From an uncultured Chitinophagales bacterium (GTDB taxonomy: Bacteria; Bacteroidota; Bacteroidia; Chitinophagales; JAHDHT01): a DNA stretch of 28,623 bases. Shown in pieces: positions 2,604 to 22,609 of the stretch (position 1 is the first letter of the stretch; each line of letters starts with the position of its first letter). The notes under the pieces were generated by a model that worked only from the letters and a program-made list of their open reading frames with translations, was not told the origin of the DNA and did no database searches. The stretch lies in assembly GCA_938023075.1 (NCBI GenBank), contig CALHDG010000077.1, positions 1-28,623 on the forward strand, read 5' to 3'. A program made the translations under genes and the position numbers.

Positions 2604-3512
2604 TCAGCTCCCTGTTTTCTTAGTACCATCTATCTTTCTCTTATATTTATCAAATTGGTTGATGCCTTTATCCACTTTTTCCATTATTTTTTTGGAGTTG
2701 AATTTTTTATCCATCAGAAGTTCTATGATCTCACTAATTTTTAAATTTTTAATCGTTCTTGAATAATCTTTATATCTTTTTTTAGTAGCTGTAATCACAA
2801 TATGACCTGATCTTTCAACCGTAGCTTTTAAAAATCCATTTTTATCGGTGTAATGAATTTCGCCATCAATGCTCACTTCCACATCTTCTAAAAGCTTCCC
2901 ATTTTCACTGTTTTCTTGGGCAACAAATTTTAAAACTATTTCTGTCTTTTCGGTAAGTACGATTTCTAAGGCTCTTTTACCATCTTGATAAATTAATTTT
3001 TGTGAGTAATCATTATAACCCTCCTTGCCCACAGTAATTAAAATAGGGTCACCTGTTAAATAGCGAGGATCTGTAATTGGTATAAATTTAAATCCATATT
3101 CATCTGTCCAATGTTCTTGCCCGTTTACATTAATTCTGGCATCTTTTATCATGGTTTTATTAATTGAATTTTCGAAAATCATAAACCATAAACCCTGCTT
3201 GTTTGAGGGGTTGATGTTAAATTGCCCTAAAGACCCTTCAGGATTGGCAAATACCGATTCTCGCGTTATGTAATCATATCCTTCCTTTAAAAAACAAAGA
3301 TTCAACTTCATGTTTCTAAAACGTCCGTCAATTACAAATTTGCCTTCTGTATCCGTATAGGTTTCTATTCCACAACTGAGTAAAACAACTTTTACATTGG
3401 GCAATCCTTCTTTTTCAATTTCTGAAAAAACATAGCCGTACAGTTGGTCGTGCTGAGCAAAAGAACATAAGCTTAAATTAATAGTAAAAAGGATAATCAG
3501 TAAATTTTTCAT
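2604..3512 (-). CDS. Secreted protein made of three carboxypeptidase-regulatory-like (CarbopepD_reg) beta-sandwich repeats. It is the downstream partner of the TIR membrane protein.
   Basis: 302 aa with a signal peptide (MKNLLIILFTINLSLCSFAQ). There are three repeats, each with the YTDxxGxF signature: 'YTDTEGKFVIDG', 'WTDEYGFKFIPI' and 'YTDKNGFLKATV'. The ATG lies 5 nt after the stop of the TIR gene on the same strand. Confidence 0.55.
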   Translation of the reverse strand: MKNLLIILFTINLSLCSFAQHDQLYGYVFSEIEKEGLPNVKVVLLSCGIETYTDTEGKFVIDGRFRNMKLNLCFLKEGYDYITRESVFANPEGSLGQFNINPSNKQGLWFMIFENSINKTMIKDARINVNGQEHWTDEYGFKFIPITDPRYLTGDPILITVGKEGYNDYSQKLIYQDGKRALEIVLTEKTEIVLKFVAQENSENGKLLEDVEVSIDGEIHYTDKNGFLKATVERSGHIVITATKKRYKDYSRTIKNLKISEIIELLMDKKFNSKKIMEKVDKGINQFDKYKRKIDGTKKTGS

Positions 3513-3517
3513 AAATT

Positions 3518-4537
3518 TTATATTTTAATGTCTATTCTATTATTGCATACTTTTTTCCATCTTTCGTATAAGCTACCCTTATATTTTATTGTGAGAAGTA
3601 TTTGTTTACCCTCAATATTGTCAAGTAATTGAATTGAAAATTTTCCTATCTTATTAACAATACAAACTAAGTCTTCTTCATCATCAAACATAATAGTTGC
3701 ACCGGTTGCTGGTTGATTGTTGGCTTCTAACTTAACCGAGCCTTTTTGTTTACAAAATGAAGTTTCTGTTTTAGGATGAACTTTATTTACAGGAGACTTA
3801 GGGAATGGAATATTTTCACTTACTTGTTTTGGAATTTCCTTTTCAGTTGCTTTATTATCTACAATATTGTTAGTGATTTCTGTAGGTTTAGAATTTTGTA
3901 GTATTTGATTTTGTTCATTAGTTGAAGTTACTTCTCGTTCGGTAATGGCAATCGGTTTTTCTGCAACTGTATCAAGTTTAGTCATCATTTCTTTAAACAC
4001 GTCTTGTGAAAGAAATAGAAATAGGCAAATAATAGATATGAAAATGCTCATCTTCAATATAAATAAGATTTTTGGGGAAAATGGTGGTTTACATTCAATT
4101 TGATTGATCAACTTTTTTAATCCATCTAAAACATTTAACCAAGCTGCATCTTTATCATCCCAAGTAGAAATGGGTTTTGCGTGGGTTGGTAAAGCCTGAA
4201 ATTGATGAAGAGCTAATGACTCAAAATCACAAATTCGAGCTATAATAGGTACAATTATAACTTCGCGTTTATTATATCTTTTAATTGCCTTATTAATTTC
4301 AATATCATTAATATAATCTGAATTAATAAAATCAGAACTGACTAAAAAAATGATGATGTCAGCAATTTGTAACTGTTTTTTCACCGCTTTATCCCAAGGC
4401 ATACCGGGTAAAATTTCATTATCACTCCAATGTTCAATTAAACCTGATCGTTCTAAACCGGTAAGATGTTTCACCAATGCTTCATAATATTGGCGATCTT
4501 CACTTGAATACGATATGAATATTTTTCGTTTGTACAT
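3518..4537 (-). CDS. TIR-domain (TIR_2-like) single-pass membrane protein. The layout is an N-terminal cytoplasmic TIR domain, one TM helix, a low-complexity linker and a small extracytoplasmic beta-sandwich-like C-terminal domain.
   Basis: 339 aa. The N-terminus 'KIFISYSSEDRQYYEALVKHL...IADIIIFLVSSDFINSDYINDIEINKAIKRYNKREVIIVPII' is a classic bacterial TIR signature (FISYS start, SxxY..DIE helix with a candidate catalytic Glu). A hydrophobic helix 'ILFILKMSIFISIICLFLFLS' lies around residues 155-178. A T/N/K/E/P-rich linker follows. The C-terminus contains 'VNKIGKFSIQLLDN', which resembles the GKF motif of CarbopepD_reg domains. The region is AT-rich. Confidence 0.7.
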   Translation of the reverse strand: MYKRKIFISYSSEDRQYYEALVKHLTGLERSGLIEHWSDNEILPGMPWDKAVKKQLQIADIIIFLVSSDFINSDYINDIEINKAIKRYNKREVIIVPIIARICDFESLALHQFQALPTHAKPISTWDDKDAAWLNVLDGLKKLINQIECKPPFSPKILFILKMSIFISIICLFLFLSQDVFKEMMTKLDTVAEKPIAITEREVTSTNEQNQILQNSKPTEITNNIVDNKATEKEIPKQVSENIPFPKSPVNKVHPKTETSFCKQKGSVKLEANNQPATGATIMFDDEEDLVCIVNKIGKFSIQLLDNIEGKQILLTIKYKGSLYERWKKVCNNRIDIKI

Positions 4538-4776
4538 ATTTTTCGCATTAAAGATAAATCAAATATTTAGATTAAGCTATTAATCTCATCATTTACGTTT
4601 TAAGATGCCTGTAATTTTATATCAAATAAATAGTGATTACAAAACTAAAACTTAGACATTTGTATCTCTTAATTAATACACGAATGGTAGGTTTGAGATG
4701 ATGAATGGTAAGCAGGGTGTTTTAATTTGATAGTCTAATAAAGTTACAAGCAAATTCTAACCTATGAAGAACTTAC

Positions 4777-5529
4777 CTACGCCCCAATCAAACCGGGCTT
4801 TAACTCATTTACAAAAGCTACCAGAAAATCGAATTCGTGCAACTCTTTATCTACTATCGTATGGTTATAGGCTACCACATCTAAATCAATGGTTCGGGGC
4901 GCATTTTTGTTGCCGATTCTTACTCTGCCTAAGCGATGTTCAATCTTTTTTAGTTCACGAATCAATTGCTCGTAAGATAATTGGGTTTGTAAGACCACGG
5001 CACCATTTAAAAAATCGGGTTGATCTAAATATTTTAAAGGCTTGGTGAAAATAAAATCCGTTTGTTGACTAATGTCGCCCAACTCCGTTAAGGCAAGCAA
5101 CGTTTTATCTTTATTTTCGGTTGGATTAATGTTAGAGCCAATGCTAATAATGGCTTCGTTATAACGATCTTGATCATCTATCTCCACCAACACATTATCA
5201 CAAAACCGAAGCGCGTGTGGTTTTTCAACCTTTACTATAACATCAAATACGTAAGGGTTTTCTTTTATGTAGGTCCATATAATTTCAGCTACCGTTTCAA
5301 TTAAGGCAAATTTTTGATGTTCAATTTTGGCAATAATGGCTTTGGTAATGGTTTTATAATTAACGGTTTCGGCTTCGCTATCGGTTTCCACAGCACGGGC
5401 AGCGTTATGTTTAAACGAAAAACTGATTACTAAGTCTTGCATCTTTTTGGTTTCCCAATCATTAAAACCGATGTAACAACGCAAGCGCAGTTTCTCTACT
5501 TGTACTTTTGTAATTTTTAATGGTTTCAT
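4777..5529 (-). CDS. folBK: Bifunctional dihydroneopterin aldolase (FolB) / 6-hydroxymethyl-7,8-dihydropterin pyrophosphokinase (FolK)
   Basis: The N-terminal half aligns to E. coli FolB ('IGFNDWETKKMQDLVISFSF', 'FALIETVAEII'). The C-terminal half aligns to HPPK ('IISIGSNINP', 'QPDFLNGAVVLQTQLS', 'RWGPRTIDLDVV'-like 'NAPRTIDLDVV'). Confidence 0.85.
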   Translation of the reverse strand: MKPLKITKVQVEKLRLRCYIGFNDWETKKMQDLVISFSFKHNAARAVETDSEAETVNYKTITKAIIAKIEHQKFALIETVAEIIWTYIKENPYVFDVIVKVEKPHALRFCDNVLVEIDDQDRYNEAIISIGSNINPTENKDKTLLALTELGDISQQTDFIFTKPLKYLDQPDFLNGAVVLQTQLSYEQLIRELKKIEHRLGRVRIGNKNAPRTIDLDVVAYNHTIVDKELHEFDFLVAFVNELKPGLIGA

Positions 5530-5532
5530 AGT

Positions 5533-6243
5533 CTACAAATTTTCCCCTCCATCTACATAAATTATTTGACCGGTAAGAAAGGCATTTTCTACAAACAATT
5601 TTACCGTATTTTGTATTTGTTTTAAATTGCCTATAGTTTGCAAGGGTATAGTTTTAGCTTTTGCTCTTAAGTAATCCATATTTTGATCGGGTGGTGGTAA
5701 AATTAATCCCGGTCCAATGGCATTTACTCTAAAATGAGGAGCTAATTCGTAAGCCGCTATTTTAGTAAACTCTTTTAATAATTTTTTACTTAAGATATAA
5801 TCTAAGTGAATGGTGTCATTATCTTCTGCTTTGGTATCTAATAAATTAATAATTAAGCCGCCCTTTTTTGTTTGAGCAAAAGCCTTGGTTAAGGTATAGG
5901 CACTTTTAAAGGTAATATTAAAATGATGATGCAACCAATCGTCAGTTGGGGTATTAAAATCGGAAGGGGTAAAATCAGAGGCATTATTCACCAATATCTG
6001 GAGATCAAAATTTGGGTCGATTTGATTCAGCACTTGAACATCAATTGCATCTTCTTTAAAATTAATAGGTAATAACTGACATTGCACACCAAGTTCTTCA
6101 ATTTCTTTTTTAGTGCTGTTTGCCTTATCAACAGATCGGTTATAATGTAATATAATATGATAACCTAAGTTGGCTAATTGTAAGGCAATGGCTTTGCCAA
6201 TTCTATCAGAACCTCCGGTAACTAATGCTGCTTTATTGCTCAT
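5533..6243 (-). CDS. Short-chain dehydrogenase/reductase, pteridine-reductase (FolM/PTR1-like) candidate
   Basis: N-terminal Rossmann motif 'ALVTGGSDRIGKAIA', 'HYNRS' and a YxxxK motif ('YILSK'). It lies 3 nt upstream of folBK on the same strand, which suggests an operon. Confidence 0.65.
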   Translation of the reverse strand: MSNKAALVTGGSDRIGKAIALQLANLGYHIILHYNRSVDKANSTKKEIEELGVQCQLLPINFKEDAIDVQVLNQIDPNFDLQILVNNASDFTPSDFNTPTDDWLHHHFNITFKSAYTLTKAFAQTKKGGLIINLLDTKAEDNDTIHLDYILSKKLLKEFTKIAAYELAPHFRVNAIGPGLILPPPDQNMDYLRAKAKTIPLQTIGNLKQIQNTVKLFVENAFLTGQIIYVDGGENL

Positions 6244-6311
6244 TGTTTATTAATCTAGTCAATATTTCAAATGGACAAAATAAGCTAAAAATTCAGAATT
6301 AGGAATGATGA

Positions 6312-6457
6312 GAAAATAAATTTACCATCTATGACAAAGCAATTTTTTGATAGACGAGGCGAAAAACGCAGTCTTAGTGGGGCTAAGACGAGGCTTTTCA
6401 ACGAAGTATATCGGAAAATTGCAAAGTCAGAATGTAAATTTATTTTTTTCTCATTCC
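6312..6457 (+). mobile_element. MITE-like dispersed repeat, family 1, copy 1 (~145 bp, terminal inverted repeats 'gagaaaataaattta' ... 'taaatttattttt')
   Basis: Near-identical (~90%) to the reverse complement of 21505-21650. The core is 'tttttgatagacgaggcgaaaaacgcagtcttagtggggctaagacgaggcttttcaacgaagtatatcgg'. Imperfect terminal inverted repeats at 6301-6326 and 6439-6466. The element is intergenic between divergent genes. Confidence 0.7.
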
Positions 6458-6525
6458 TTAGAGAAAAGTACCTTTTATCATTCCATAGTTTAATTTAGGT
6501 AAAAACTTTTTTGCCTGTCAAGAAA

Positions 6526-7494
6526 ATGTTTTCTTTGAAAAGTATGAGAGCCAAAGCCTTATTTCACATCAATGCACATCAGTCAACTATACAAGAAGTG
6601 AAGTTGCCGGCGGCAGATGATAGGGTGATTATTCAATCGCTGTATTCTATGATAAGTACCGGTACAGAATTAACAGTAGCCAAAGGTGAAATAGCTAATC
6701 AATTTGCCGATCGAATGGCAGTACCTTATATGGAAGGTAGTTTTTTGCTCCCAATAAAGTATGGTTATTCTATGGTAGGCAAGGTTCTCTCAAGCGGAAA
6801 ATATCAAAATAAAATAGTGCATTTATTGCATCCTCATCAAAATGAATGTGTAGTTAAGTTGGAAGATTTGATGCTTGTTCCCAATGAGTTACCTCCCTTA
6901 CGAGCGGCTTTAACCAGTAATATGGAAACGGTAGTTAATGCGATTTGGGATAGTGAGTTGAGTGCCGGGCAAACTGCAGTTGTTTGTGGCTTTGGCAACA
7001 TTGGTAGCTTATTGGCAGAAACGTTACGCATACATTTTCAGGTTGAAGTGATGGTTTTAGAAAAAAATGAATGGCGGATAAACAAAGCACGTCAATTGGG
7101 TTTTCGGGTAAATGAATCTATTCAAACATCATTGGCTTTTCATACCACCGGTACCGAAAAGGGTTTACAAACTTGTATTGACTTAGTTGAAAAAGAAGGA
7201 AAAATAATTGAGCTGAGTTGGTATGGTAATAAGCAAGTAAACCTTCAATTGGGTGGAAGTTTTCATTATGATCGAAAACAAATTATTAGCTCACAGGTCT
7301 CTTCTATTCCATTAAAAAAACAAAGTGAATGGAATTTTGCGAAACGAAAACAATATGTTTTTGAATTATTATCTGCCTCAGCGTATGATGCCTATATTAG
7401 TCAACTCATTCCTTTTGAAGAAAGTGCTCAATTTTTTAATCATTTAAGAAAAAATGATAACCCTGAAGGTTTGATATGGTGCATCCAATACTAG
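6526..7494 (+). CDS. MDR-type (alcohol-dehydrogenase-like) NAD(P)-binding dehydrogenase lacking the canonical zinc Cys ligands
   Basis: Rossmann GxGxxG 'VVCGFGNIGSLLAE'. No CGxCHSD-type Zn motif is visible. The six-frame track starts at a TTG at 6511, and the first in-frame ATG is 6526 (MFSLKS...). It is followed by a PTPS-like gene. Confidence 0.5.
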   Translation: MFSLKSMRAKALFHINAHQSTIQEVKLPAADDRVIIQSLYSMISTGTELTVAKGEIANQFADRMAVPYMEGSFLLPIKYGYSMVGKVLSSGKYQNKIVHLLHPHQNECVVKLEDLMLVPNELPPLRAALTSNMETVVNAIWDSELSAGQTAVVCGFGNIGSLLAETLRIHFQVEVMVLEKNEWRINKARQLGFRVNESIQTSLAFHTTGTEKGLQTCIDLVEKEGKIIELSWYGNKQVNLQLGGSFHYDRKQIISSQVSSIPLKKQSEWNFAKRKQYVFELLSASAYDAYISQLIPFEESAQFFNHLRKNDNPEGLIWCIQY

Positions 7495-7538
7495 TATAAA
7501 AAGCATCTTATAAAAAGAAATTGAAAACCAGTTAATTT

Positions 7539-7910
7539 ATGTATACCGTAAAAATAAGAGAGCATATTATGATCGCTCATTCTTTTAAAGACCCTTTTTT
7601 TGGACCGGCACAAAAAATGCATGGTGCCACTTATGTAGTAGATGTTTCCTTTATAACGCCTCAGTTGAATAAGCACAATGTGGTTATTGATATTGGAAGA
7701 GCACACGATGTAACCAAAAAAATATTGCAACAAATCAACTATCAAAATTTAGATGAACATCCTGATATGCTGGGTGATTTGACAACTACCGAATATCTAT
7801 GCAAATATATTCATGATAAAATAGGGGAGGAGCTAAGGGACGAGTTTAATGGAAAACTATCGGTCACTTTAGGAGAATCGCATGTAGCTTGGGCTAGTTA
7901 TCAGGGTTAA
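7539..7910 (+). CDS. 6-pyruvoyl-tetrahydropterin synthase / QueD-fold protein with a non-canonical active-site signature
   Basis: 123 aa, alignable to E. coli QueD: 'IMIAHSFKDP...KMHGATYVVDVSF' versus 'FEAAHRL...RLHGHSFMVRLEI'; 'NYQNLDE' versus 'DHHYLND'; 'TTEYLCKYIH' versus 'TSEVLAKWIW'. The CxxxHGH Cys is absent and the third His is Ala. Confidence 0.65.
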   Translation: MYTVKIREHIMIAHSFKDPFFGPAQKMHGATYVVDVSFITPQLNKHNVVIDIGRAHDVTKKILQQINYQNLDEHPDMLGDLTTTEYLCKYIHDKIGEELRDEFNGKLSVTLGESHVAWASYQG

Positions 7911-7946
7911 AGGGTAACGGCATAAACATACTTGATGTCTTGTTAA

Positions 7947-8840
7947 TCAAAATCGCATTAAATCGGTTGAGAGAAAATTCCATTCTGGCGTAGTAATTTC
8001 ATTTGTATCTTTCAAAGCATACCAAGGAGAAAGTTCATCATTCAAGGGATTAACGAGTATATGAATATCTTGTGCAGGCATATAACTTTGTGCTAATATA
8101 TAGACTTTTTCTGCTTTATGGTTTTGAGCTATATCTAACACCATTACGGCGTGTCCGGGAAAACCACCTTGAATGAAGACATCTCCAATTTGCATATTTT
8201 TAAAATTGACGCTTTTCATTTCTTTACTTAAGGAAGCACTTCCTGCATAAGTAAAAACCATATTCAAATATTTTCTGAAATTTTGATAGCTATTATCTTG
8301 AGGTTGAGATTTATTCCATGTAACCTTACTGCCTTTTATTACAGGCCGCCAACCTTGCTTCCATTTTTGCCAAGCGCAAACATCTCCACTTGTAAAATTA
8401 AAAGCGATTTCATCAAACCGCTCCATTTCATACAGATACTCTGCCCTTATCCGCATCACCGCATCGGCACATTGCTGTAAATCTCTAATTCCGACATCAA
8501 CATCTAATATAGCATAATGTGCTTTTTGATTGCCTTTCAATTCTCCATTAAATAATCTAACAGGGCTATCTAAAGGTTTTAACAATAAATTTCTGCAAAA
8601 ACTACCCATCTCACCACCTATATCTTCTCTGAAAAAACCCTTGGGTAAAGGTATATTGCCAATTTTTTCAATTTTTTGTGGAGTTAATGTTGTAACTGCA
8701 TTAGATTTTTCTAAATTAGTAAAGATGGTATCTTTTTTGTAAGGTGCTTGTGGCGAAGTACAATAAACGCAAAATACAATAGATGTAACATAAATAATTA
8801 TATGCAAGAGTTTCATAAGGTTCAATTTTTTGATATTCAT
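7947..8840 (-). CDS. Hypothetical lipoprotein (possibly DUF4846-like)
   Basis: 297 aa with an N-terminal signal and lipobox-like 'FCVYCTSPQ'. No catalytic motif is recognisable. The family assignment is from memory only. Confidence 0.4.
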   Translation of the reverse strand: MNIKKLNLMKLLHIIIYVTSIVFCVYCTSPQAPYKKDTIFTNLEKSNAVTTLTPQKIEKIGNIPLPKGFFREDIGGEMGSFCRNLLLKPLDSPVRLFNGELKGNQKAHYAILDVDVGIRDLQQCADAVMRIRAEYLYEMERFDEIAFNFTSGDVCAWQKWKQGWRPVIKGSKVTWNKSQPQDNSYQNFRKYLNMVFTYAGSASLSKEMKSVNFKNMQIGDVFIQGGFPGHAVMVLDIAQNHKAEKVYILAQSYMPAQDIHILVNPLNDELSPWYALKDTNEITTPEWNFLSTDLMRF

Positions 8841-8919: not shown

Positions 8920-10290
8920 ATGTATGCAATTGTCGATGTAGAAACCACTGGAGGTAGTCCTAAAAGAGAACGAATAATCGAAATAGCTATTATAAAATCG
9001 AATGGCGAAAAAATTATTGATTCTTATCAAACGCTGGTTAATCCAGAAAAAATGATTCCTCCTTTTGTTAGTAACCTAACCGGTATTAGTAACGAAATGG
9101 TGGAAGAAGCGCCACTTTTTGAAGAGATTGCCCCTCAAATAGAGGCTTTTACCAAAGGTTGCGTAATAGTAGCACACAACGCTCATTTTGATTATGGTTT
9201 TATCAAAAACGAATTTCGATATATCGGAGAATATTATCAAAGAGACCGGATTTGTACGGTAAAACTTACACAAAGGGCATTACCCGGTTTAGAAGGATAT
9301 AGTTTGGGAAAGCTCGCTACACATTTTAACATTGACCACGAAGATAAACACCGGGCTTATGCTGATGCTGAAGCAACTACCCGGCTTTTACATATTTTAT
9401 TGCGCGATGCCAATCCTCAAATTTTAGCGCAATTTATGCATCGCAGTTATATTCATAACCCACCAGAAATTAAAATACCGGAAAAACAAATCGTAAATGT
9501 GCCGGAAGATACGGGCATTTTGCAATTTTATAATGCAGCGGGCAAAATTTTGTATATCATGAAATCTCATGATTTATACACCAGAATAACAGATATGTTA
9601 TTTTATTTTAATCCGGATACGCACAAGGGTAATATGCTAAAAAAAGCAACCGATATATCATTTTCGGTTACGGGAAGTGAAATTTTAGCCCAAATTTTAG
9701 AAATTGAGCATATTTACAAACATCGCCCTGCCTACAATAAAAAAACCTATGGACTTAATTTAGTTGAGATGCAGGCTGAAAAAGATAAATATGGTTATTA
9801 TAATATTCATCTGCATCGTTCAAATAAAATTGCTAAAAATGGCACCTATTTCTCTAATTTTTACGAAGCGAATTCGCAAATAGGTAGTTTAGTAAAGTTA
9901 CATAAACTTTGCCCTATTTTATGTACGCGCCAAACTAACTTAAATGGCAATTGCGAATATTTTGAGAAAAAATTATGTCAGGGAGCTTGTGTAAAGCAAG
10001 AAGAAAAAACAACTTACAATAAAAGAGTAGAAAGAGCCTTGAAAAAATTGAAGTATAAACATCCTAATTTTATTTTAATTGATGAAGGACCCAACATGGC
10101 TACCTTAACGGCATTTATCATTAAAAATAATGCTTGCAAAGGTTATACTATTATTGACAAAGAAAGTAAGATAGAAAATCCAGAAGCTCTATTAGAAGAA
10201 ATAACGCCAACTATGGCACATCCGGTTATTGATCAAAAAATACGGATGTTCATCCAAAAGAAAAAATATGAAAAAATAGTACCTTTTTAA
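8920..10290 (+). CDS. DnaQ-like 3'-5' exonuclease fused to a GIY-YIG (Cho/UvrC-N-like) nuclease domain
   Basis: The N-terminus has Exo I 'YAIVDVETTGG', Exo II 'VIVAHNAHFDYGFI' and Exo III 'HRAYADAEAT'. The middle region has a GIY-YIG-like 'GILQFYNAAGKILYIMKSHDLYTRI' and a following 'LEIEHIYKHRPAYN'. The architecture resembles M. tuberculosis Rv2191-type Cho fusions. Confidence 0.7.
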   Translation: MYAIVDVETTGGSPKRERIIEIAIIKSNGEKIIDSYQTLVNPEKMIPPFVSNLTGISNEMVEEAPLFEEIAPQIEAFTKGCVIVAHNAHFDYGFIKNEFRYIGEYYQRDRICTVKLTQRALPGLEGYSLGKLATHFNIDHEDKHRAYADAEATTRLLHILLRDANPQILAQFMHRSYIHNPPEIKIPEKQIVNVPEDTGILQFYNAAGKILYIMKSHDLYTRITDMLFYFNPDTHKGNMLKKATDISFSVTGSEILAQILEIEHIYKHRPAYNKKTYGLNLVEMQAEKDKYGYYNIHLHRSNKIAKNGTYFSNFYEANSQIGSLVKLHKLCPILCTRQTNLNGNCEYFEKKLCQGACVKQEEKTTYNKRVERALKKLKYKHPNFILIDEGPNMATLTAFIIKNNACKGYTIIDKESKIENPEALLEEITPTMAHPVIDQKIRMFIQKKKYEKIVPF

Positions 10291-10464: not shown

Positions 10465-11706
10465 TTATTCCTGCTCAAAAACCCGAATATAATCGACCAC
10501 CATAAATTGAGGAAAAACCGTTGTTGCATCGGGAGACCCGGGCCATTGCCCACCAACAGCCACATTAAAAATAAAGAAAAACGGATCATTAAACGGATAA
10601 GGATTTTGTGTCCCTAAACTAACTTTAGTTACGGTATGATACTTTACATCATCTAATAAAAATTCAATTTGATCTTCTTCCCAAATAATTGAAAATACGT
10701 GAAAAGCTTCTGAAAATTTTTGGTCGCCGGATAATATAGTGGAAGAGCCATTCATTAGTTGTTGAGTATCTGGATTAGCATAATGTACGGTTGCATGTAC
10801 TTCCGACGGTTTGTGACCGACCAATTCCATAATGTCAATTTCACCGCAACGGGGCCATTCAAAAGCAGGATCGTCAATATTGGCACCCAACATCCATAAA
10901 GCGGGCCAAATACCTTGCCCTTCGGGTAAAGCTGCACGAATGTCAACCCTGCCAAATTTAAATTCAAATTTGTTTTTTGTAATCAGTCTCGAGCTGGTAT
11001 AATTAAAACCATTAGACCTTTCTTCCTTAGCTTCAATAACGAGGTTACCATCTATTAAAGAGGTATTTTCTCTTTTGTAAAATTCTAATTCGTTGTTACC
11101 CCAACCCCATTCGCCATTGCCAATTTCATAAGTCCAAAAACTTTCATCCAACTGTTCTCCATCAAACTCATCACTCCATAACATTTTCCAACCCTCATAT
11201 TCCGTTGGCGTGCTGTAACCCGTATCAGGAATATTTAACATGCCAACTATAGCTGCATCGTCGTTTTGTATTACAATGGTTGCCGAAGCCACCTCAATAT
11301 TAGCACCCGTAACATTAACAATTTCGATCGTTAAATCTTCGTCCGCTTCGGTTTCGGTATCCCCAATTATAGTAAGCTCCACATTTTCTTGTGTCGAGCC
11401 AATACCAAATTCAACAAGCTTTGAAACAGTCACATAATCCAATCCGGCTGCTGCCGTTCCATCCTCCGATTCCACAAAAATGCTAACCAGTTCGGTTGAG
11501 GCTTTAGATAAACGGACACTTACAAAAACACTTTGCTCGTCATCGCCTTCCAATACCGATAAAGCAACTATAGACACCCTTGGTTTGGTGTCTGTTGGAG
11601 GTGCAGGCGGCTCCTCCGTTCCACAAGAACACGTTAAGCACAACACACTAAATAAGGCAAGTAAAATTTTCACCAATTTTATATTTATATTATTAAAGAA
11701 GAGCAT
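10465..11706 (-). CDS. GH16 family endo-beta-1,3-glucanase (laminarinase) with an N-terminal Calx-beta domain; lipoprotein
   Basis: GH16 catalytic motif 'GEIDIMEL' (ExDxxE). Calx-beta-like 'GLDYVTVSKLVEFGIGSTQENVELTIIGDTETEADE'. Signal/Cys-rich N-terminus 'LCLTCSCG'. The track ORF begins at a TTG at 11712, and the first ATG is at 11706. Confidence 0.8.
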   Translation of the reverse strand: MLFFNNINIKLVKILLALFSVLCLTCSCGTEEPPAPPTDTKPRVSIVALSVLEGDDEQSVFVSVRLSKASTELVSIFVESEDGTAAAGLDYVTVSKLVEFGIGSTQENVELTIIGDTETEADEDLTIEIVNVTGANIEVASATIVIQNDDAAIVGMLNIPDTGYSTPTEYEGWKMLWSDEFDGEQLDESFWTYEIGNGEWGWGNNELEFYKRENTSLIDGNLVIEAKEERSNGFNYTSSRLITKNKFEFKFGRVDIRAALPEGQGIWPALWMLGANIDDPAFEWPRCGEIDIMELVGHKPSEVHATVHYANPDTQQLMNGSSTILSGDQKFSEAFHVFSIIWEEDQIEFLLDDVKYHTVTKVSLGTQNPYPFNDPFFFIFNVAVGGQWPGSPDATTVFPQFMVVDYIRVFEQE

Positions 11707-11809
11707 CCGCAAAAACGAATGCTCTATATTATTTGTTAATTTAAGACTTTAACCTGATACCCGATAACTTTATTTTAAACCTATCCATAAAATTTTATGA
11801 TTTATTCTG

Positions 11810-11925
11810 GAAGCGAAACTACAAGCTCATTTAGAAACGGGCTCCCCGCTATCCGTTCAAATGCTACGCCAACGCTTCAAAAGCCAACGCTTCAGGTAGC
11901 ATAACCACTGCTATCGGGGCTAAAC
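11810..11925 (+). repeat. Family-2 structured intergenic element, copy A (~115 bp)
   Basis: Aligns to the reverse complement of 22494-22609 ('gaagcgaaac...ccccgct.tccg.tcaaatgcta...gccaacgcttcaaagcc...agcataacc.ctgc.atcggggcta'). It contains a hairpin atgctaC...Gtagcat, whose counterpart in copy B is atgctaT..Atagcat, a compensatory change. It lies between the PKD gene stop and the GH16 gene start. Confidence 0.6.
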
Positions 11926-11984
11926 TTCCAACTTCATCACTATTTAAATACGTTCTTAATATATAATCATCAAGTTAATATAAT

Positions 11985-13505
11985 CTACTTTATACTAAAA
12001 TTTCTAACATAAAAGTTACCCGCTTTAGTATGGTCATTACCACCAATTCGAATAAAAATCATATCAAAATCAGTTCTCTCTTTAGGCGTACTTCCATTGC
12101 CAGTATTCGATACAAAAGTAGGACTATCTAAATCGAAACTTATCGGTATCCACTCATCTTCTGCAAAACCGGAGTCATCTGCTTCATACTGTTGAATGTC
12201 TTCCCACCATCTTTCTGTAGCACTAAGGTCGCCAAAACCAATAATTACATTTTTAGTTAAAGCACCAGAATAATCGTTGGCACTAGGAAAGTAAACTTCA
12301 ATATCAATAGTAGATAAGTTAGCAAAATTAATATCACTTTCAGGAGAAGTTTGCAATTGAAATTCCTGAAACTGTGCTTCAGTTCTTATAAACTCTCCAA
12401 CTAAATCCATACTACCTGCCGGATCGGGAACTTCATAGGTTACAAAAGAACCTGAAGAGGGAGGCACTCGAAAGTTTGCCGTATCTGCATTTAAAAACGA
12501 AAGCGACAGTTCAGTTGGCGTTACATCCGGTAAATCTTCTCCAAATTCCATAGGTTCCGGCGCATCGGTTACTACATCCGGCTTTAAACTAAGGTCGGTG
12601 TAATGGGCGTATCTAATGGGCCAATAGTTACCATCATATATAAACTCAACCAACATTACATCGTAGCCGGTAAATTCTTCAATAGTAACTTTAGCAGAAA
12701 CTGAACTAACGGGAACTATGGTTTCGCCATTTGTTCCTAATTTTGGATTACCAATCCAGGCACCTTCACCATTAAGTGTAAGTGTGCTGGTAGCGGCATC
12801 ATACTCAAAAGTATGCTTACCCGATCTCCAGGCAGAAACATCATTTCCACAAGAATTGACCAAATTAGCATCTGTTGATTCTATGCAAGCTTCAGGAGTA
12901 ATTTTGTCAGTGCAGCTATTGTTATTAAATACGCCAAATTCTGTCCAAAACTCCCCTTTATCATCAAACTCGTAAGTACCATCTGAGTGAAAAATAAACT
13001 CATGAAAATAAAGGCATGGTCTTGACCCATCGTTGGCTAAGCCTGCCCAATGTCCAGCAGGATCATATGCATTTGGCCCAACCGACATGCTTATACCTTC
13101 CCGGAAAAGATCCCATGTTTTAGAAGTCTCACCTGTTAAAGTTTTAATAGCCGAATTCGGATCGGAGAGCGAAAAGCTTTCACTTCTGGTGGCAGACATT
13201 CCGTCAGCGTTTCGTGCCGTTAAGGTAACAGTGTAGTCTCCTGCTTCGCTGTAAGTATGGCTTGGGCTTTGTTCAGTAGAGCTGTTGCCATCGCCGAAAT
13301 CCCAAGAGTAAGAAGTTGCGTTTAGTGAGAAATTAGAAAATTGAACGGTCAGGAAATCAGTCTCATCAATTTCGAATTGAAAGCTGGCAACCGGAGTTGG
13401 TGAAACAGGATCTGGATCATCTTTACAACCGGTAGAATACATCAACACAAAAACCGGTATAAGTATTTTAAACCAGTTTTTGGGCATTAAAAATAAACTT
13501 TTCAT
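11985..13505 (-). CDS. PKD-domain surface glycan-binding lipoprotein (SusE/F-position protein of the PUL)
   Basis: Lipoprotein signal 'LMYSTGCKDD'. PKD motif 'WDFGDGNSSTEQSPSHTYSEAGDYTVTLTARNADG'. It is located immediately downstream of susD. Confidence 0.7.
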   Translation of the reverse strand: MKSLFLMPKNWFKILIPVFVLMYSTGCKDDPDPVSPTPVASFQFEIDETDFLTVQFSNFSLNATSYSWDFGDGNSSTEQSPSHTYSEAGDYTVTLTARNADGMSATRSESFSLSDPNSAIKTLTGETSKTWDLFREGISMSVGPNAYDPAGHWAGLANDGSRPCLYFHEFIFHSDGTYEFDDKGEFWTEFGVFNNNSCTDKITPEACIESTDANLVNSCGNDVSAWRSGKHTFEYDAATSTLTLNGEGAWIGNPKLGTNGETIVPVSSVSAKVTIEEFTGYDVMLVEFIYDGNYWPIRYAHYTDLSLKPDVVTDAPEPMEFGEDLPDVTPTELSLSFLNADTANFRVPPSSGSFVTYEVPDPAGSMDLVGEFIRTEAQFQEFQLQTSPESDINFANLSTIDIEVYFPSANDYSGALTKNVIIGFGDLSATERWWEDIQQYEADDSGFAEDEWIPISFDLDSPTFVSNTGNGSTPKERTDFDMIFIRIGGNDHTKAGNFYVRNFSIK

Positions 13506-13523
13506 ACTATTAAATTTTATGTT

Positions 13524-15146
13524 TTATTGAAATAAACTTGCGTCAGGATATTCGGTTAAGTTTTGTGCTACAGTGGTTTCTTGCAAGGCAATAGGTAACC
13601 ACAAATGCTGGTTTTCATCAAAGTTGGTTTCTCTAATATCATCTCCGGCAAATAAAGCATTCGTGGCTCTGCCCGATCTAACCAAATCAAACCAACGATC
13701 GCCTTCTAAGGCTAATTCGGCTCTTCTTTCGTACCAAATCATTTCTATTATCGACCAAGCTTCGTCACTCATCACTTGTTGCGCCGTTCTGAAATTGTCG
13801 TTGTTATCGCCCGGTCCGGCAGCGCGTTCTCTTACTTCATCAATATAAGTCATCGCTTCTCCTTCAGAACCGGAACCTCTCACCAAAGCTTCTGCCAACA
13901 TCAACAAAACATCTGCATATCTTATCGAATAAATATTATCATCTTTGGTTAAATTAGGATCGCCACCGTTTACATTATTGCCTTGGTAAGCCAAAAAGTT
14001 TGGAAATTTTTCTTGCCAATAACCCGTATAATCTATCGGGTTGCTTTGGGTTTGATCGACTACTACATCACAAAATCCTTCGGCATCTTCTATATCTTGC
14101 GTCAATTCATCAACTGAAATAATTGATGCATCGCGCCGGTAAGTATCATCAGATAAATAAGAATCATATAAGGATTGCGTAGGCAACATAAAGCCCCAAC
14201 CTTCTTGATACTCCGGATGCGCCGCACACAAACCTCTTATGCCACACAATTGAGTGATGCCATTGCCTTCAATACCCTCAAACCAACCCCAATCGCTGGG
14301 CCACAAATTCGATTTTTGAATTTCAAAAACCGATTCGACCGGATTTTTTAAGCCAAAGGCAAACAAGGCTTGGTAGTCGTCAACTAAACTATATGCACCG
14401 GATTCTACCACACTTTTTAATTGTTCCGCTGCCTGATCGAATTTCGCCACGTCATCGTTCATTAAATCTGCCCAATATAAATATACTTTGCCTAACAAGG
14501 CTTGTGCCGCTCCTTTGTTGGCTCTGCCTGCTTCAGAAGATGAAATGGAAGTAGGTAAAATATTGATGGCTTCGAGTAAATCGGTTTCAATCGCTGTAAA
14601 AACTTCGGTTAAAGTGTTTCTGGCGAGACCCGTATCTTCTGGAGATAACAAATCCTTCACCACCGGAATAGGACCAAAATGTTTAAACAATTCAAAGTGA
14701 TAATAGGCACGTAAAAATTTGGCTTCTGCCTGGTACCTGTCCACAATAGGCGAAGTAATTTCTGGTTGATGAATCACTAAATTCGCTCTAAAAATGCCAA
14801 TGTAAAACCGGCGATACATCGGATGCGTTACGGTGTTGGTATTGGTGTTTCTAAAATCATCAAATTCTTGCCAGCCGGGTTGGTCGTTATCAGATGGGTC
14901 TCCACCGGCGTGGGCATTATCGCTTCTGATTTCGTTGTACATCACTTCTGAAACCCAATTGCCAAATGCCATCGTCCAACCCAACGGATCATAAGCAGCT
15001 ACTAATGCAGCAAACACCTGGTCTTCGGTTTGATAAAAATTTTCTGATAAAAATTCGTTTACCGGTTCTACATCCAAATCCTCACTGGAGCATCCTGCCA
15101 ACAAAACAATAATTGTAATAAATGAAAATATTTTTTTAAGGTACAT
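13524..15146 (-). CDS. susD: SusD/RagB-family nutrient-binding outer-membrane lipoprotein
   Basis: 540 aa with lipoprotein signal 'LLAGCSSEDL'. It sits 12 nt downstream of the SusC gene on the same strand. TPR-like helical composition typical of SusD. Confidence 0.85.
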   Translation of the reverse strand: MYLKKIFSFITIIVLLAGCSSEDLDVEPVNEFLSENFYQTEDQVFAALVAAYDPLGWTMAFGNWVSEVMYNEIRSDNAHAGGDPSDNDQPGWQEFDDFRNTNTNTVTHPMYRRFYIGIFRANLVIHQPEITSPIVDRYQAEAKFLRAYYHFELFKHFGPIPVVKDLLSPEDTGLARNTLTEVFTAIETDLLEAINILPTSISSSEAGRANKGAAQALLGKVYLYWADLMNDDVAKFDQAAEQLKSVVESGAYSLVDDYQALFAFGLKNPVESVFEIQKSNLWPSDWGWFEGIEGNGITQLCGIRGLCAAHPEYQEGWGFMLPTQSLYDSYLSDDTYRRDASIISVDELTQDIEDAEGFCDVVVDQTQSNPIDYTGYWQEKFPNFLAYQGNNVNGGDPNLTKDDNIYSIRYADVLLMLAEALVRGSGSEGEAMTYIDEVRERAAGPGDNNDNFRTAQQVMSDEAWSIIEMIWYERRAELALEGDRWFDLVRSGRATNALFAGDDIRETNFDENQHLWLPIALQETTVAQNLTEYPDASLFQ

Positions 15147-15158
15147 CGTTCTTTCTTT

Positions 15159-18100
15159 TTATAAAGTTATTTTAATTCCTCCGCCAATGGTTTTATTAGA
15201 TGGGTAAAAACCCTTATCAATACCGGTATCTAAAATCCAACCGGTGGTGCCAATCTCGGGGTCGAAACCACGATAGTTAGTTACAGTTAGCAAATTATTG
15301 GCTGAGGCATATACTCTAATGCCTTTCAGTTTTATTTTGCTGGCAATTTTTTGAGGTAAATTATAGCCCAACTGTATATTTCTCAATCTTAAAAATGAAC
15401 CATCTTCTACATAAAAGTCAGATGGACGTTGGTTGTTGTTGGGGTCGTTAGAAACCAACCTTGGCAAGGAGGCATTAGGGTTTTCGGGTGTCCATCTATC
15501 TAACCAAAAATCTTGATAATTGGTGTACGATATATCCGATCGCTCGTAGGTTCTAAAAATATCGTGCCCTAACTGTGTGCCCAAAACCGCATTAAAATCA
15601 AAGCCTTTAAAGGTAGCACCGAAAGTTAAACCGATTACGTGGTTTGGCCAAGGGCTGCCAATGTGACCAATGTCGTCGGTATTAATCAAGCCATCTTTAT
15701 TCGTATCTACAAAACGAATGTCGCCCGGGCTGGCATCGGGTTGTAAAACATCACCGGTATTGCTAATGTGCGAAAACACTTCATCTTGCGAACTAAAAAT
15801 GCCATCGGTTTGATAACCCACAAAATGCCCAACCGGAAAGCCTTCCGTCATTCTGGTGATGGGTTGGTTTCTTACGGGCCAACTCCATCCATCTAAAAAG
15901 CCGGTTTCTCCTGCAACATCAATCACTTCATTTTTAAAAGTGGTGTAGTTTAAGCCGGTATTGAATTTAATGCCTGCCACATCAAACTTATAATTAATGC
16001 TGGCTTCAAAACCCGTATTTTGAATTTCGCCAAGGTTGCTGATAGGATTGTTTGTAGCCCCAATAAAACCGGGAATGAATTGTTCCATCAACAAGTCTCT
16101 GGTATTCTTAATATAAAAATCAAATTCAGTAGTTAATTTATCTTGCCAAAAACGCAGTTCTAAACCAACATCTAATTGCCGGCTTTCTTCCCATTTTATG
16201 TTGGGGTTGGGTGGTGTTGCCAACGAAGAACCGGTGTTTAGTGCCGGATCAATTCCAAAAGGATAACTAAAGGCATTTTCTATTCGTGGTGCATAAGTTA
16301 AGGGTGCGATTCTATCATTGCCATTTACGCCCCAACTGGCTCTAATTTTTGCAAAATTAACTGGACCCACATCAAAAAATAGTTCATCAGATAATACCCA
16401 TCCTAGCGAAAAAGAAGGAAAGATACCAAAGCGGTTTTGAGCACCAAAGTTAGAAGAACCATCTCTACGTAAAGTTGCCGAAAAAAGATATTTCCCGGCA
16501 TAATCATACAACAACCTTCCATAATAACTTACTAATTTGTATTCTACATCAATGCCACCATAGCTTAAGTCAATGGTATCTTGCCCGGCATCTAATATTT
16601 GAAAATTTTCGTTGAATTGAACTTCGCTTGGGATAAATTGCGAACTTCCTCCCGCACGTTCGCCAATAGAATTTCGGTAAGAGGTACCTACTACCACATC
16701 AACATTGTGAATGTCGGCAAATGTATTGTTATAATTTAAATAATTTTCTACCTGGTATGATTGGGAAAATCCAAAGCCTTGAGAAATATCGTTAGAGACA
16801 TTAATAGCAGCAGGATGGAAGTTATAATCCGGTGTAAACGATCGGAATTTAAACCAGGAATAATCCATACCAAAATCGGAGTGAAAACGGATATGTTCGG
16901 TCGGATGAATTTCGAGAAATACATTACCCAAAATTTGATCGGCATGGCCTCTGTTATTGTTAATAAATAATCTACTCAAGGGATTGATATATTCTTTCTG
17001 CACCCATCTTGATTGTGCATAGCCAAATTCTCCCAATTCATCAAATAGCGGAGTTACCGGATCGTAAGCAAAGGCATCGGATATAACCGTTCCAAAGGCG
17101 TTATTTGAACCAATATTTTGGTTATCCACCCGGTTGGCATAAATATTTTCACCAATCGTTACAAAATCATTAATCTCTTTTTTGCTATTGATCCGAACGG
17201 CATATCTTTTGTAATTGGATTTTGTGCCGCCAACCACGCCATTTTGATCCCAATATTCGAGCGAAAGAAACACGTTATTTGCCGATGCCGATAAGCGGTG
17301 CGATTGTAAGCCGGCATCCGTAAAAATAGCATCCATCCAATTGGTGTTTATACTATTTTCGCCAACGGAGGGAAAGCCTAAGCTGTTTAAAAAATTTAAT
17401 TGATTACCGTTTGTAAATTTTTCGCGGGTTAAGGTAAGATAGTCATCAGCACCTAACATAGTTGGTAAACGCCAAGGCTGTGAGGTTGAAGTGAATGCCT
17501 CGTAAATCAACTCGCCACCATCTTGTGTTCCTTTTTTGGTGGTGATGATGACCACGCCATTGGCAGCACGTGCTCCATAAATAGCGCAAGAGGCGGCATC
17601 TTTCAACACATCTACACTTTCAATATCATTTGGGTTGATGTTATCTATACCCGATACTTGCAGCCCATCTACAATAAATAAAGGCGTATTATCTCCATTA
17701 GTGCTCACCCCTCTAATTAAAATAGATTTACCCGAACCCGGTTGACCAGAAGACTCACTCACAATTAAGCCAGAGACTTGACCCTCTAAGGCAGATTGCA
17801 CATTTTGAACCTGATAGCCTTCTAAATTTTCGGTATCTAATTTCGCAACAGAGCCCGTAGCTACCCGTTTTTTCTGAACGCCATAGCCAATCACTACTAC
17901 TTCATTTAACAGTTCGCTTGAGATATCCATCACCACATCAATGGTTGTTCGATTGCCAACCACAATTTCCTGTGTTTCATAACTCGTATAGGAAAAACGC
18001 AAAGTATCTGCCGGTGAATTTACCTTAAGGTTATACTTGCCATCAATATCGGTAATAGTGCCGGTAGAAGTGCCTTTCAACAAAATGGTCACCCCAATTA

Positions 18101-18206
18101 ATGGGAGCTCATCTTCGCTGGATATTACCGTTCCTTGAATGGTTTGCCCTTGAACCTGCAAGCACATAGCGATTGCCATCAGTAGAAAAGTCAGTTTTAT
18201 TTTCAT
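15159..18206 (-). CDS. susC: SusC/RagA-family TonB-dependent outer-membrane transporter
   Basis: N-terminal CarbopepD_reg domain ('IQGTVISSEDELPLIGVTILLKGTSTGTITDIDGKYNL'). Hallmark SusC TonB-box/plug motif 'VVIGYGVQKKRVATGSV'. About 1000 aa. The likely start is MKIKLTF at 18206; the track ORF extends to 18248. Confidence 0.9.
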   Translation of the reverse strand: MKIKLTFLLMAIAMCLQVQGQTIQGTVISSEDELPLIGVTILLKGTSTGTITDIDGKYNLKVNSPADTLRFSYTSYETQEIVVGNRTTIDVVMDISSELLNEVVVIGYGVQKKRVATGSVAKLDTENLEGYQVQNVQSALEGQVSGLIVSESSGQPGSGKSILIRGVSTNGDNTPLFIVDGLQVSGIDNINPNDIESVDVLKDAASCAIYGARAANGVVIITTKKGTQDGGELIYEAFTSTSQPWRLPTMLGADDYLTLTREKFTNGNQLNFLNSLGFPSVGENSINTNWMDAIFTDAGLQSHRLSASANNVFLSLEYWDQNGVVGGTKSNYKRYAVRINSKKEINDFVTIGENIYANRVDNQNIGSNNAFGTVISDAFAYDPVTPLFDELGEFGYAQSRWVQKEYINPLSRLFINNNRGHADQILGNVFLEIHPTEHIRFHSDFGMDYSWFKFRSFTPDYNFHPAAINVSNDISQGFGFSQSYQVENYLNYNNTFADIHNVDVVVGTSYRNSIGERAGGSSQFIPSEVQFNENFQILDAGQDTIDLSYGGIDVEYKLVSYYGRLLYDYAGKYLFSATLRRDGSSNFGAQNRFGIFPSFSLGWVLSDELFFDVGPVNFAKIRASWGVNGNDRIAPLTYAPRIENAFSYPFGIDPALNTGSSLATPPNPNIKWEESRQLDVGLELRFWQDKLTTEFDFYIKNTRDLLMEQFIPGFIGATNNPISNLGEIQNTGFEASINYKFDVAGIKFNTGLNYTTFKNEVIDVAGETGFLDGWSWPVRNQPITRMTEGFPVGHFVGYQTDGIFSSQDEVFSHISNTGDVLQPDASPGDIRFVDTNKDGLINTDDIGHIGSPWPNHVIGLTFGATFKGFDFNAVLGTQLGHDIFRTYERSDISYTNYQDFWLDRWTPENPNASLPRLVSNDPNNNQRPSDFYVEDGSFLRLRNIQLGYNLPQKIASKIKLKGIRVYASANNLLTVTNYRGFDPEIGTTGWILDTGIDKGFYPSNKTIGGGIKITL

Positions 18207-18381
18207 ATTTACAAATTGGTTGATATAAACTATTATATCGTAAAACAAATATAGTACAACTATTCACTTTTTGTTGAGGAAATGGCAAATATGTAAAGAT
18301 TAAGAAAACCTGAGACATATTGCCTACTGTAAAACGAAGATAAAAGAGCATATTTATGTTAACAAAAGGTTAATCAAACCT

Positions 18382-22493: not shown

Positions 22494-22609
22494 AACTAGC
22501 CCCGATTGCAGCGGTTATGCTATTTTTGCGTGGCTTTGAAGCGTTGGCAAAATAGCATTTGAGCGGAAAGCGGGACCCGCCTTAGTATAATGCTACAAGG
22601 TTTCGCTTC
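22494..22609 (-). repeat. Family-2 structured intergenic element, copy B
   Basis: Its reverse complement aligns with 11810-11925. The hairpin is atgctatttt...aaaatagcat. The copy shares 'tgcaatcggggctagtt' with 137-153. It lies in the divergent intergenic region between nfeD and pdxJ. Confidence 0.6.

Follow-up and report, generated by a model that had tools for sequence, protein, structure and literature searches.

Does the TIR domain encoded on a contig of an uncultured Chitinophagales bacterium belong to a dedicated TIR system facing the cell exterior, or is it an addition to something older? The DNA analysed here, hereafter the window, is the 28,623-nucleotide (nt) stretch of contig CALHDG010000077.1 (assembly GCA_938023075.1). 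It carries two minus-strand genes, one encoding a 339-residue protein with a TIR domain, a single transmembrane (TM) helix, a linker and a C-terminal beta domain (the anchor), and the other, downstream, a 302-residue secreted protein (the partner). A first-pass annotation, made from the DNA letters alone, had described this pair as an inverted Toll-like module and had suggested an envelope-sensing abortive-infection system. We show that the architecture is real, rare and uncharacterised, that the conserved unit is an envelope pair present in several Bacteroidota lineages and not an intrinsically TIR-based system, and that the TIR domain is a lineage-specific add-on to this pre-existing envelope module.

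The anchor contains a genuine TIR domain with a Glu at the catalytic position. The list of open reading frames (ORFs) confirms the two frames proposed, 5 nt apart; that of the anchor is uninterrupted, it begins with the same MxKRKIFISYS start as its homologues, and the motifs FISYSSED, SDYINDIEIN and GKFSI that had been picked out are all found in the protein. Against Pfam TIR_2 (PF13676), the domain scores 54.6 bits over residues 6–118 (cutoff 28, E=2e-14). Its best PADLOC match is ThsB1 (PDLC00420; E=8.3e-36), residues 5–150 aligning with profile positions 3–148 of 319 only, that is, with the TIR part; the PADLOC SAVED_TIR match is confined to the TIR part as well. The score against Pfam ThsB_TIR (19.7) is below the cutoff of 21.2, and nothing significant was found for the protein in NCBIfam. 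In an AlphaFold2 (AF2) model computed from a 20-sequence alignment, the TIR domain has a predicted local distance difference test score (pLDDT) above 90. Searching the PDB with this model using Foldseek returned exclusively TIR domains as top matches, with AbTir (7uxu) at a TMt of 0.78 and a root-mean-square deviation (rmsd) of 3.0 Å, and further matches to TRR-2, SPARTA, SARM1 and Toll-like receptors (TLRs). Five residues (F7, Y10, D14, S67 and E80) show no variation across 26 aligned relatives. A single-sequence phmmer search of the PDB gave no match; the profile of this alignment retrieved Cat1 (E=8e-15), BtTir and AbTir, and in it E80 falls on the Glu of their W..(Y/D)EL motif, which in AbTir is the catalytic E208. 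The TIR domain and the candidate catalytic Glu of the first-pass annotation are both upheld, and from this position we infer a NADase activity that would depend on E80.

How is this domain held in the cell? The anchor has one strong TM helix (Kyte-Doolittle 2.75, residues 157–175), as do all other anchors found in this study, and the P and K that precede it are invariant in four anchors. The AF2 model gives a long helix at residues 155–191, a disordered stretch at 194–266 (pLDDT <50) and an all-beta C-terminal domain at 261–338 (pLDDT 54–77), so that hydropathy and structure prediction agree on the single helix, the linker and the small C-terminal domain (C-domain) first described. Because the TIR domain has no signal peptide, the TM helix is single, Lys plus Arg (K+R) residues are more abundant on the N-terminal side of this helix in close homologues (7 vs 2 in P0002, 6 vs 1 in L003, 4 vs 1 in L004) and the C-domain has paired invariant Cys, the anchor is predicted to be a single-pass type II protein with the TIR inside and the C-terminus outside, the orientation originally proposed. 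The two Cys, located at both ends of the C-domain, are invariant across seven lineages, and this pairing suggests that Cys262 and Cys331 likely form an extracytoplasmic disulfide. Anchor C-domains match CarboxypepD_reg in 7/7 members (best E=7.4e-7), although that of the window protein is under the gathering thresholds of this family and its sister family CarbopepD_reg_2 (PF13620/PF13715), with scores of 15.6 and 12.1 bits. Comparing the anchor C-domain with the partner repeats by hhalign gave a probability of 84% and an E-value of 7.7e-6. Together, the match in all seven members and the hhalign result support the earlier suspicion that the anchor C-domain and the partner repeats share one fold.

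The partner model comprises a signal helix, three beta domains (residues 23–99, 107–185 and 191–267) and a C-terminal helix (273–295). TD..G is invariant in each repeat, and T, D, G, K and Y are invariant across the repeats. Foldseek matched the protein to carboxypeptidase N/D C-terminal domains (rmsd 2.2 Å over 81–86 columns), and further to CnaB-type pilin, TIE and SdrD domains. With Pfam, it reaches 29.6 bits for CarbopepD_reg_2 (cutoff 32.2) and 20.9 bits for the second carboxypeptidase-regulatory family of the pair PF13620/PF13715 (cutoff 32.3), in both cases through repeat 1 only. Despite these sub-threshold scores, comparison of the predicted structures confirms a transthyretin/CnaB-like seven-stranded beta-sandwich fold. 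The three-repeat, signal-peptide-bearing partner of the first-pass annotation is thus recovered by structure; of the Pfam families proposed there for searching, TIR_2 exceeds its gathering threshold and CarbopepD_reg_2 does not. We considered that the partner might be a lipoprotein (LSLC, Cys16) and rejected this, the Cys being missing in P0032 and P0033, two homologues presented below. Since this Cys of the signal peptide is not conserved and the F(A/S)-Q motif is, the partner is a signal-peptidase-I substrate. Cleavage that leaves a Gln at the N-terminus is typical of Bacteroidota.

We then asked which part of the pair is conserved. Among ~5.8 billion clustered proteins, the TIR-bearing anchor has one full-length homologue only, P0002, which is 44% identical overall and 59–60% identical in the TIR domain. 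Its gene (locus L001) is followed by that of a partner 74% identical to the window partner, in unrelated surroundings (P450, FBP aldolase and M4-LRR peptidase). Three further close partner homologues were found, including P0032 (64%) and P0033 (59%). The gene before each of these two encodes a 197–198-residue protein that consists of the TM helix, the linker and the C-domain of the window protein without the TIR, and no TIR coding sequence lies upstream of these TIR-less anchors. On a 71-kb metagenome contig (L008), a TIR-less pair whose genes overlap by 4 nt lies between those of an aminotransferase, a glycosyltransferase and a PolX/PHP protein. When 1.84 billion representatives were searched with a profile, only two clusters of full-length partners emerged, the remaining matches being repeat-level ones in giant proteins. 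Next to a distant partner cluster (P0035, 33–35% identity), the preceding gene encodes a protein ending in the same two-Cys domain; likewise, a TM-anchored protein that ends in this domain is encoded ahead of each of two more remote partner-like proteins, P0039 (in which two repeats are combined with Fib_succ_major) and P0043. Scanning genome contigs with the partner profile gave a weak repeat-1 match only, in a Flavobacteriaceae metagenome-assembled genome (MAG; L007), and the scan of metagenomes added L008.

Anchor and partner are adjacent in seven lineages (the window, L001, L003/L008, L004–L006, L010, L017 and L019), with a spacing that ranges from a 4-nt overlap to an 18-nt gap, so that the pairing seen in the window is indeed conserved. 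Two of the seven have a TIR, four have full-length TIR-less anchors, and in the last the anchor is cut by the contig end. TIR-less anchors expose a cytoplasmic tail of merely 13–28 residues and have a flexible periplasmic linker of 70–110 residues. Because four of the seven lineages have full-length TIR-less anchors in housekeeping contexts, the pair is not intrinsically a TIR module, contrary to the original description; and since these anchors have short tails in other lineages, the TIR is a lineage-specific addition. At two of the loci, L017 (1261–3149) and L019 (685–2327), the gene of the two-Cys TM anchor precedes that of a secreted protein in which two partner-like repeats are joined to a dissimilar C-terminal part, a Fib_succ_major lectin-like domain in P0039 and one to which no domain is assigned in P0043. 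This suggests an uncharacterised Bacteroidota family of modules made of a tether and a secreted protein.

Where did the TIR come from, and has it been kept? Partner identities give the topology (((window, L001), L003/L008), L004), L010, the partners of the TIR-bearing pairs being 74% identical to each other and 62–64%, 58–60% and 33–35% identical to successive outgroups. As the TIR-bearing pairs form the most derived partner clade, one gain of the TIR is more parsimonious than two losses, and the fusion was probably a single event. In a neighbour-joining tree the two anchored TIRs are sisters (72% bootstrap); next nearest is the soluble TIR-EAD11 protein P0003, which is equally similar to the window TIR (59%). 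TIR-EAD11 proteins from similar marine metagenomes (P0003, P0004 and P0006–P0009, 46–59% identity) are the nearest relatives, EAD11 being confirmed by Pfam in P0003 and P0006, and the clade also contains TIR-SAVED (P0015), TIR-nSTAND, TIR-iSTAND, TIR-TPR, TIR-GUN4 and TIR-FGE-sulfatase proteins. EADs have been described by Kaur, Burroughs, Iyer and Aravind (2020, PMC7159879) as homotypic adaptors through which effectors are linked to NTPase-centred conflict systems. One TIR-EAD11 gene adjoins a SLATT-patatin-TIR operon and another lies between the genes of a 904-aa protein and an FRG-domain protein. At L011 (4919–7118, minus strand; 7474–8801, plus strand), the gene of P0006 lies beside a three-gene SLATT_1, patatin and TIR operon and upstream of the gene of an unannotated 1248-aa protein, and this locus is a probable defence island in the marine Bacteroidota MAG GCA_964441245.1.

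Between the window and L001, the ratio of non-synonymous to synonymous substitution rates (dN/dS) is ~0.21 in the TIR, 0.26 in the C-domain, 0.92 in the linker and 0.08–0.13 in the partner regions with estimable dS, all of these being rough values, with synonymous sites near saturation. Linker identity has fallen to 22%, compared with 59–60% for the TIR, in which the invariant residues are all kept. To judge from these sequence comparisons, the TIR has clearly been maintained under purifying selection since the fusion. Other members of the clade carry independent fusions, TIR-TM-TPR in P0010 (323 aa, Leptolyngbya) and TIR-TM-Peripla_BP_6 in P0017 (512 aa); P0029 has a TIR and TM helices only, with no outside domain. 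The layout of TIR, TM helix and putative outside domain thus recurs in this clade, P0010 and P0017 appearing receptor-like in their predicted organisation and apparently uncharacterised.

Do the surroundings of the pair point to a function? No cyclase, SIR2, ThsA, STING or NTPase gene is present in the 28.6-kb window, in agreement with the first-pass annotation as regards the absence of a cyclase, SIR2, ThsA-like or STING partner, and all window ORFs of at least 100 aa other than the pair have metabolic or envelope functions. A scan of viral contigs gave no relative of the pair, and tblastn against plasmids matched TIR domains only (41–45% coverage). An anti-sigma/ECF module was considered and rejected: there is no sigma factor in the window, L001 or L008, nor adjacent in any locus, and the TIR-less tail has 13–28 residues. 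The two genes have the lowest GC contents of the window, 0.300 and 0.318 versus 0.379 ± 0.027 for the 18 other genes (z about −2.9 and −2.3). This AT-richness had been noticed correctly, but its interpretation as the sign of an accessory or horizontally acquired TIR module is rejected, the pairs of L008 (TIR-less) and L001 being equally low in GC relative to their own contigs. Since the TIR-less pair of L008 is equally AT-rich, AT-richness is a property of the core pair, and it is partly due to a K/N/I-rich amino-acid composition. Upstream of the ATG of the TIR gene, the sequence TAnnTTTG occurs exactly at −102 and with a 7/8 match at −22; with ~0.16 exact matches expected by chance, these matches are not above chance and a Bacteroidota-type promoter motif was not retained. 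The coordinates of the features of the pair are collected in the table.

Table. Features of the anchor–partner locus, in window coordinates.
Feature	Coordinates	Strand	Evidence
Anchor gene (TIR, TM helix, linker, beta domain), 339 aa	3518..4537	(-)	ORF list; Pfam and PADLOC TIR matches; AF2; one full-length homologue, P0002 (44% identity)
TIR domain, residues 1–150, predicted cytoplasmic	4088..4537	(-)	TIR_2; ThsB1; pLDDT >90; Foldseek; dN/dS ~0.21 vs L001
Glu80 codon, candidate catalytic residue in NDIEIN	4298..4300	(-)	Invariance in relatives; alignment with Cat1, BtTir and AbTir
Juxtamembrane PK motif and single TM helix, residues ~155–178	4004..4075	(-)	Kyte-Doolittle; AF2 helix; invariant P and K; K+R bias in close homologues
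Low-complexity T/N/K/E/P-rich linker, residues ~192–258, predicted disordered and periplasmic	3764..3964	(-)	pLDDT; divergence vs L001
C-terminal ~80-aa CarboxypepD_reg-like beta domain, Cys262 and Cys331 invariant	3521..3763	(-)	AF2; alignment; hidden Markov model; hhalign
Secreted partner gene, 302 aa	2604..3512	(-)	ORF list; homologues at 74%, 64% and 59–60%, distant one at 33–35%; AF2
Signal peptide, residues 1–19, conserved F(A/S)-Q cleavage motif	3456..3512	(-)	Alignment; AF2 N-terminal helix 2–16
Three tandem carboxypeptidase-regulatory/CnaB-like beta-sandwich domains, residues ~21–268	2709..3452	(-)	AF2; Foldseek; repeat invariants
Basic C-terminal helix, residues ~269–302	2607..2708	(-)	AF2 helix 273–295; conserved DKK...K...D.G...KK.G
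Upstream intergenic region, 239 nt, probable promoter region of the two-gene operon	4538..4776	(-)	Weak motif match

Directly upstream of the TIR gene (4777–7910) lies a pterin/folate cluster with a fused FolB-HPPK gene, an SDR gene (possibly a pteridine reductase), an ADH-like dehydrogenase gene and that of 6-pyruvoyl-tetrahydropterin synthase (PTPS). A 456-aa DEDDh exonuclease protein encoded 4.4 kb from the TIR gene (8920–10290, plus strand) matches the PADLOC candidate PDC-S48 (E=1.3e-45) through its exonuclease domain only, a match that is probably generic. A polysaccharide-utilisation locus (PUL; 10465–18248, minus strand) that looks like one of the laminarin or beta-glucan type encodes a protein with GH16 and Calx-beta domains, a PKD protein, SusD and SusC, the latter with its own N-terminal CarbopepD_reg_2 domain (66 bits). 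The other neighbours encode a sugar-phosphate isomerase, a 3-keto-disaccharide hydrolase, DUF4846, M14 peptidase, SPFH and DUF1800/DUF1501 proteins, and PdxJ. About 100 nt upstream of pdxJ (22688–23419), a pyridoxal-phosphate-biosynthesis gene, a Flavo-1 RNA (RF01705) was detected at 22494–22581 on the plus strand (46.1 bits, gathering score 42); by this RNA and the SusC/SusD genes, the contig would be assigned to Flavobacteriia. Between the Flavo-1 RNA and the SPFH/flotillin-like gene, a 176-aa ORF (21786–22316, minus strand) has no Pfam or PADLOC match.

What could a TIR do on an envelope tether? The best explanation, which we favour tentatively as a real possibility, is a clustering-activated single-pass TIR NADase receptor built on the envelope tether. 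Since TIR-less anchors have only a short cytoplasmic tail, the ancestral anchor would have been a passive tether, presenting its small sandwich domain on a flexible periplasmic linker beside the secreted three-sandwich protein. A TIR of the conflict-system-effector type would then have been fused to the cytoplasmic N-terminus of this anchor, adding a cytoplasmic output. The periplasmic C-domain and the partner may set the lateral association state of the anchor, which the partner would either drive or block, and a periplasmic event (a ligand, an envelope perturbation or a phage component) would cluster the anchors and bring their TIRs together. Clustered TIRs could form a composite active site and cleave NAD+ through Glu80, the outcome being NAD+ depletion or a signal derived from ADP-ribose (ADPR). 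The NADase activity of TIRs depends on stacking or oligomerisation, for example in Cat1 filaments (PMC13434031). Because a single-pass helix passes little conformational information and the TIR active site lies between stacked domains, induced proximity would be the most economical mechanism, and the independent fusions of the same TIR clade in P0010 and P0017 support an outside-in design.

Several observations weigh against such a receptor. The fusion is rare, with only two TIR-bearing lineages among the ~5.8 billion clustered proteins, and the core pair works in the absence of a TIR and has housekeeping genes for neighbours. The putative interaction between anchor and partner is proposed from gene adjacency and the shared fold, and the AF2 confidence of the anchor C-domain is moderate (54–77). 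In the window protein K+R residues show only a weak bias (3 vs 2), as they do in L019 (4 vs 3), and in L017 the bias is reversed (1 vs 2). There is no defence island around the pair, no PADLOC match for the partner, for the TIR-less anchor or for the neighbours in the window, L001 and L008 (the generic exonuclease domain excepted), and no mobile-element signature, that is, no tRNA, no integrase and no convincing flanking direct or inverted repeats. Recurrence of the pair in defence islands, which the first-pass annotation had raised, was thus not seen, and no PADLOC system was matched. As the unit conserved across lineages is an envelope pair, found with and without a TIR, the case for defence is not as strong as first proposed; an envelope-sensing abortive-infection role is a plausible hypothesis.

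Other explanations account for parts of the same evidence. The pair could belong to envelope housekeeping and have a structural, tethering or binding role in the periplasm, while the TIR, unconnected with immunity, would provide homotypic interactions or a scaffold, or would regulate metabolism. The TIR-less versions found in four lineages among aminotransferase, glycosyltransferase and PolX genes fit this, as do the folate/pterin and sugar genes around the window pair and the stronger conservation of the partner than of the TIR (74% vs 59% identity; dN/dS 0.08–0.13 vs 0.21). However, the catalytic-position Glu and all clade-invariant residues are kept in both fused lineages, and the nearest TIR relatives are conflict-system effectors, not scaffolds; we regard this explanation as unlikely. 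Alternatively, a self-sufficient TIR might simply be held at the inner membrane, for instance close to where phage DNA enters the cell, and there answer a cytoplasmic cue, the outside parts being irrelevant to activation. An ancestor that was a passive tether, as the TIR-less anchors without a cytoplasmic signalling part indicate, the little conformational information that single-pass proteins transmit, and the existence of P0029 would all be compatible with such parking. It nevertheless appears decidedly improbable, given that both TIR lineages have kept the linker, the C-domain, the paired Cys and the partner under purifying selection, and that the independent fusions to a TM helix with TPR or Peripla_BP_6 suggest that outside domains matter.

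The match to ThsB1, the best obtained with PADLOC, and the weak one to Pfam ThsB_TIR raise a further alternative, a Thoeris-like split in which the anchored TIR would be a ThsB-type sensor that makes a signal of the cyclic-ADPR-isomer or His-ADPR type for an unlinked ThsA-like effector, the tether only positioning the TIR. As the analysis covers the 28.6-kb contig, this effector could lie elsewhere in the genome. We give this possibility little credence, for the window and L001 contain no partner of the SIR2/SLOG, Macro/TM or caspase type, the ThsB1 match is limited to the TIR part of the profile, and the conserved gene pair associates the anchor with a beta-sandwich partner that is no known Thoeris effector. 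Lastly, the restriction of the fusion to two lineages would be expected from a neutral or decaying fusion accident or a gene-calling artefact with a functionless TIR. This is hardly credible in view of the uninterrupted ORF with the start shared by its homologues, and it is disfavoured by the selection data, the TIR being kept at 59–60% identity with a dN/dS of ~0.2 and all its invariant residues while the linkers diverged to 22% identity.

If the anchor is a clustering-activated receptor, it might more specifically follow a bacterial version of the Toll/IL-1-receptor logic, in which the periplasmic sandwich and the partner detect an outside cue (a specific ligand, damage to the cell wall, or the tail or ejection machinery of a phage) and, acting through a single TM helix, turn on the TIR NADase by induced proximity. 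We consider this specific form somewhat doubtful. Were it true, TIR-TM-ectodomain receptors would have evolved several times independently, with ectodomains of the CarboxypepD_reg (the present protein), TPR or periplasmic-binding-protein type, and would constitute an unrecognised class of outside-in TIR signalling. Bacteria would then use TIRs for outside-in signalling as animals do with TLRs and IL-1 receptors, and the few immune systems that sense the envelope (Kiwa, Zorya and SNIPE) would be joined by one with a TIR output. To our knowledge, characterised bacterial TIR proteins are cytoplasmic and respond to cytoplasmic triggers, namely nucleotide second messengers, phage proteins and guide RNA-target duplexes. 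The natural TIR-less and TIR-bearing versions provide a ready comparison of how an effector domain is grafted onto an envelope protein, and the anchor–partner pair is by itself an uncharacterised envelope module of Bacteroidota.

How does the pair compare with known systems? We found no bacterial receptor with a TIR, a TM helix and a periplasmic domain described in the searchable literature; as this covers only part of what is published, proteins of this layout may already figure in computational catalogues. In its proposed function, the pair comes closest to the TIR NADases gated by oligomerisation and to the envelope-sensing systems Kiwa, Zorya and SNIPE. The oligomerisation-activated TIR NADases (Cat1, TIR-SAVED of CBASS and AbTir/BtTir) have the same TIR fold, sequence family and Glu motif position. 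The window protein lacks CARF, SAVED and nucleotide-sensing domains and has neither a cyclase nor CRISPR genes nearby; its N-terminal TIR is followed by a TM helix and a predicted extracytoplasmic beta-sandwich. Neither the anchor nor its neighbours have a SAVED or cNMP-binding Pfam match and no CD-NTase or cyclase lies nearby, so the locus is not of the CBASS or Pycsar type. With respect to its nearest TIR relatives, the TIR-EAD11 effectors (PMC7159879), the TM helix, linker and CarboxypepD_reg-like domain replace EAD11; the window protein has no EAD11 match, and there is no STAND, iSTAND or vWA-MoxR component nearby, which sets it apart from the EAD-coupled NTPase systems. Thoeris provides the best-scoring profile, ThsB1, but neither the window nor L001 has an adjacent ThsA-type gene, the conserved neighbour being a secreted beta-sandwich protein, and ThsB proteins are soluble whereas the window TIR is predicted to be membrane-anchored.

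Kiwa, Zorya and SNIPE (PMC13434031) follow the logic proposed here, an inner-membrane protein with a periplasmic part controlling a cytoplasmic effector. They have no sequence relationship to the window pair, which has no PADLOC match, and their effectors are DNA-binding proteins or nucleases, not TIRs. P0010 and P0017 have the same order of an N-terminal TIR, one TM helix and a putative periplasmic domain; their outside domains differ and they have no known conserved secreted partner. Finally, metazoan Toll-like and IL-1 receptors share with the anchor a single-pass organisation, a cytoplasmic TIR, a beta-rich or repeat-containing extracytoplasmic domain and plausibly activation by induced TIR proximity, a likeness based on predicted topology. 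The polarity of the window protein is reversed (type II, with the TIR N-terminal), its ectodomain is CarboxypepD_reg-like and not made of leucine-rich repeats or immunoglobulin domains, and its TIR, which groups with bacterial effectors, still has the catalytic-type Glu. The window protein is an independent fusion and not an orthologue of the animal receptors.

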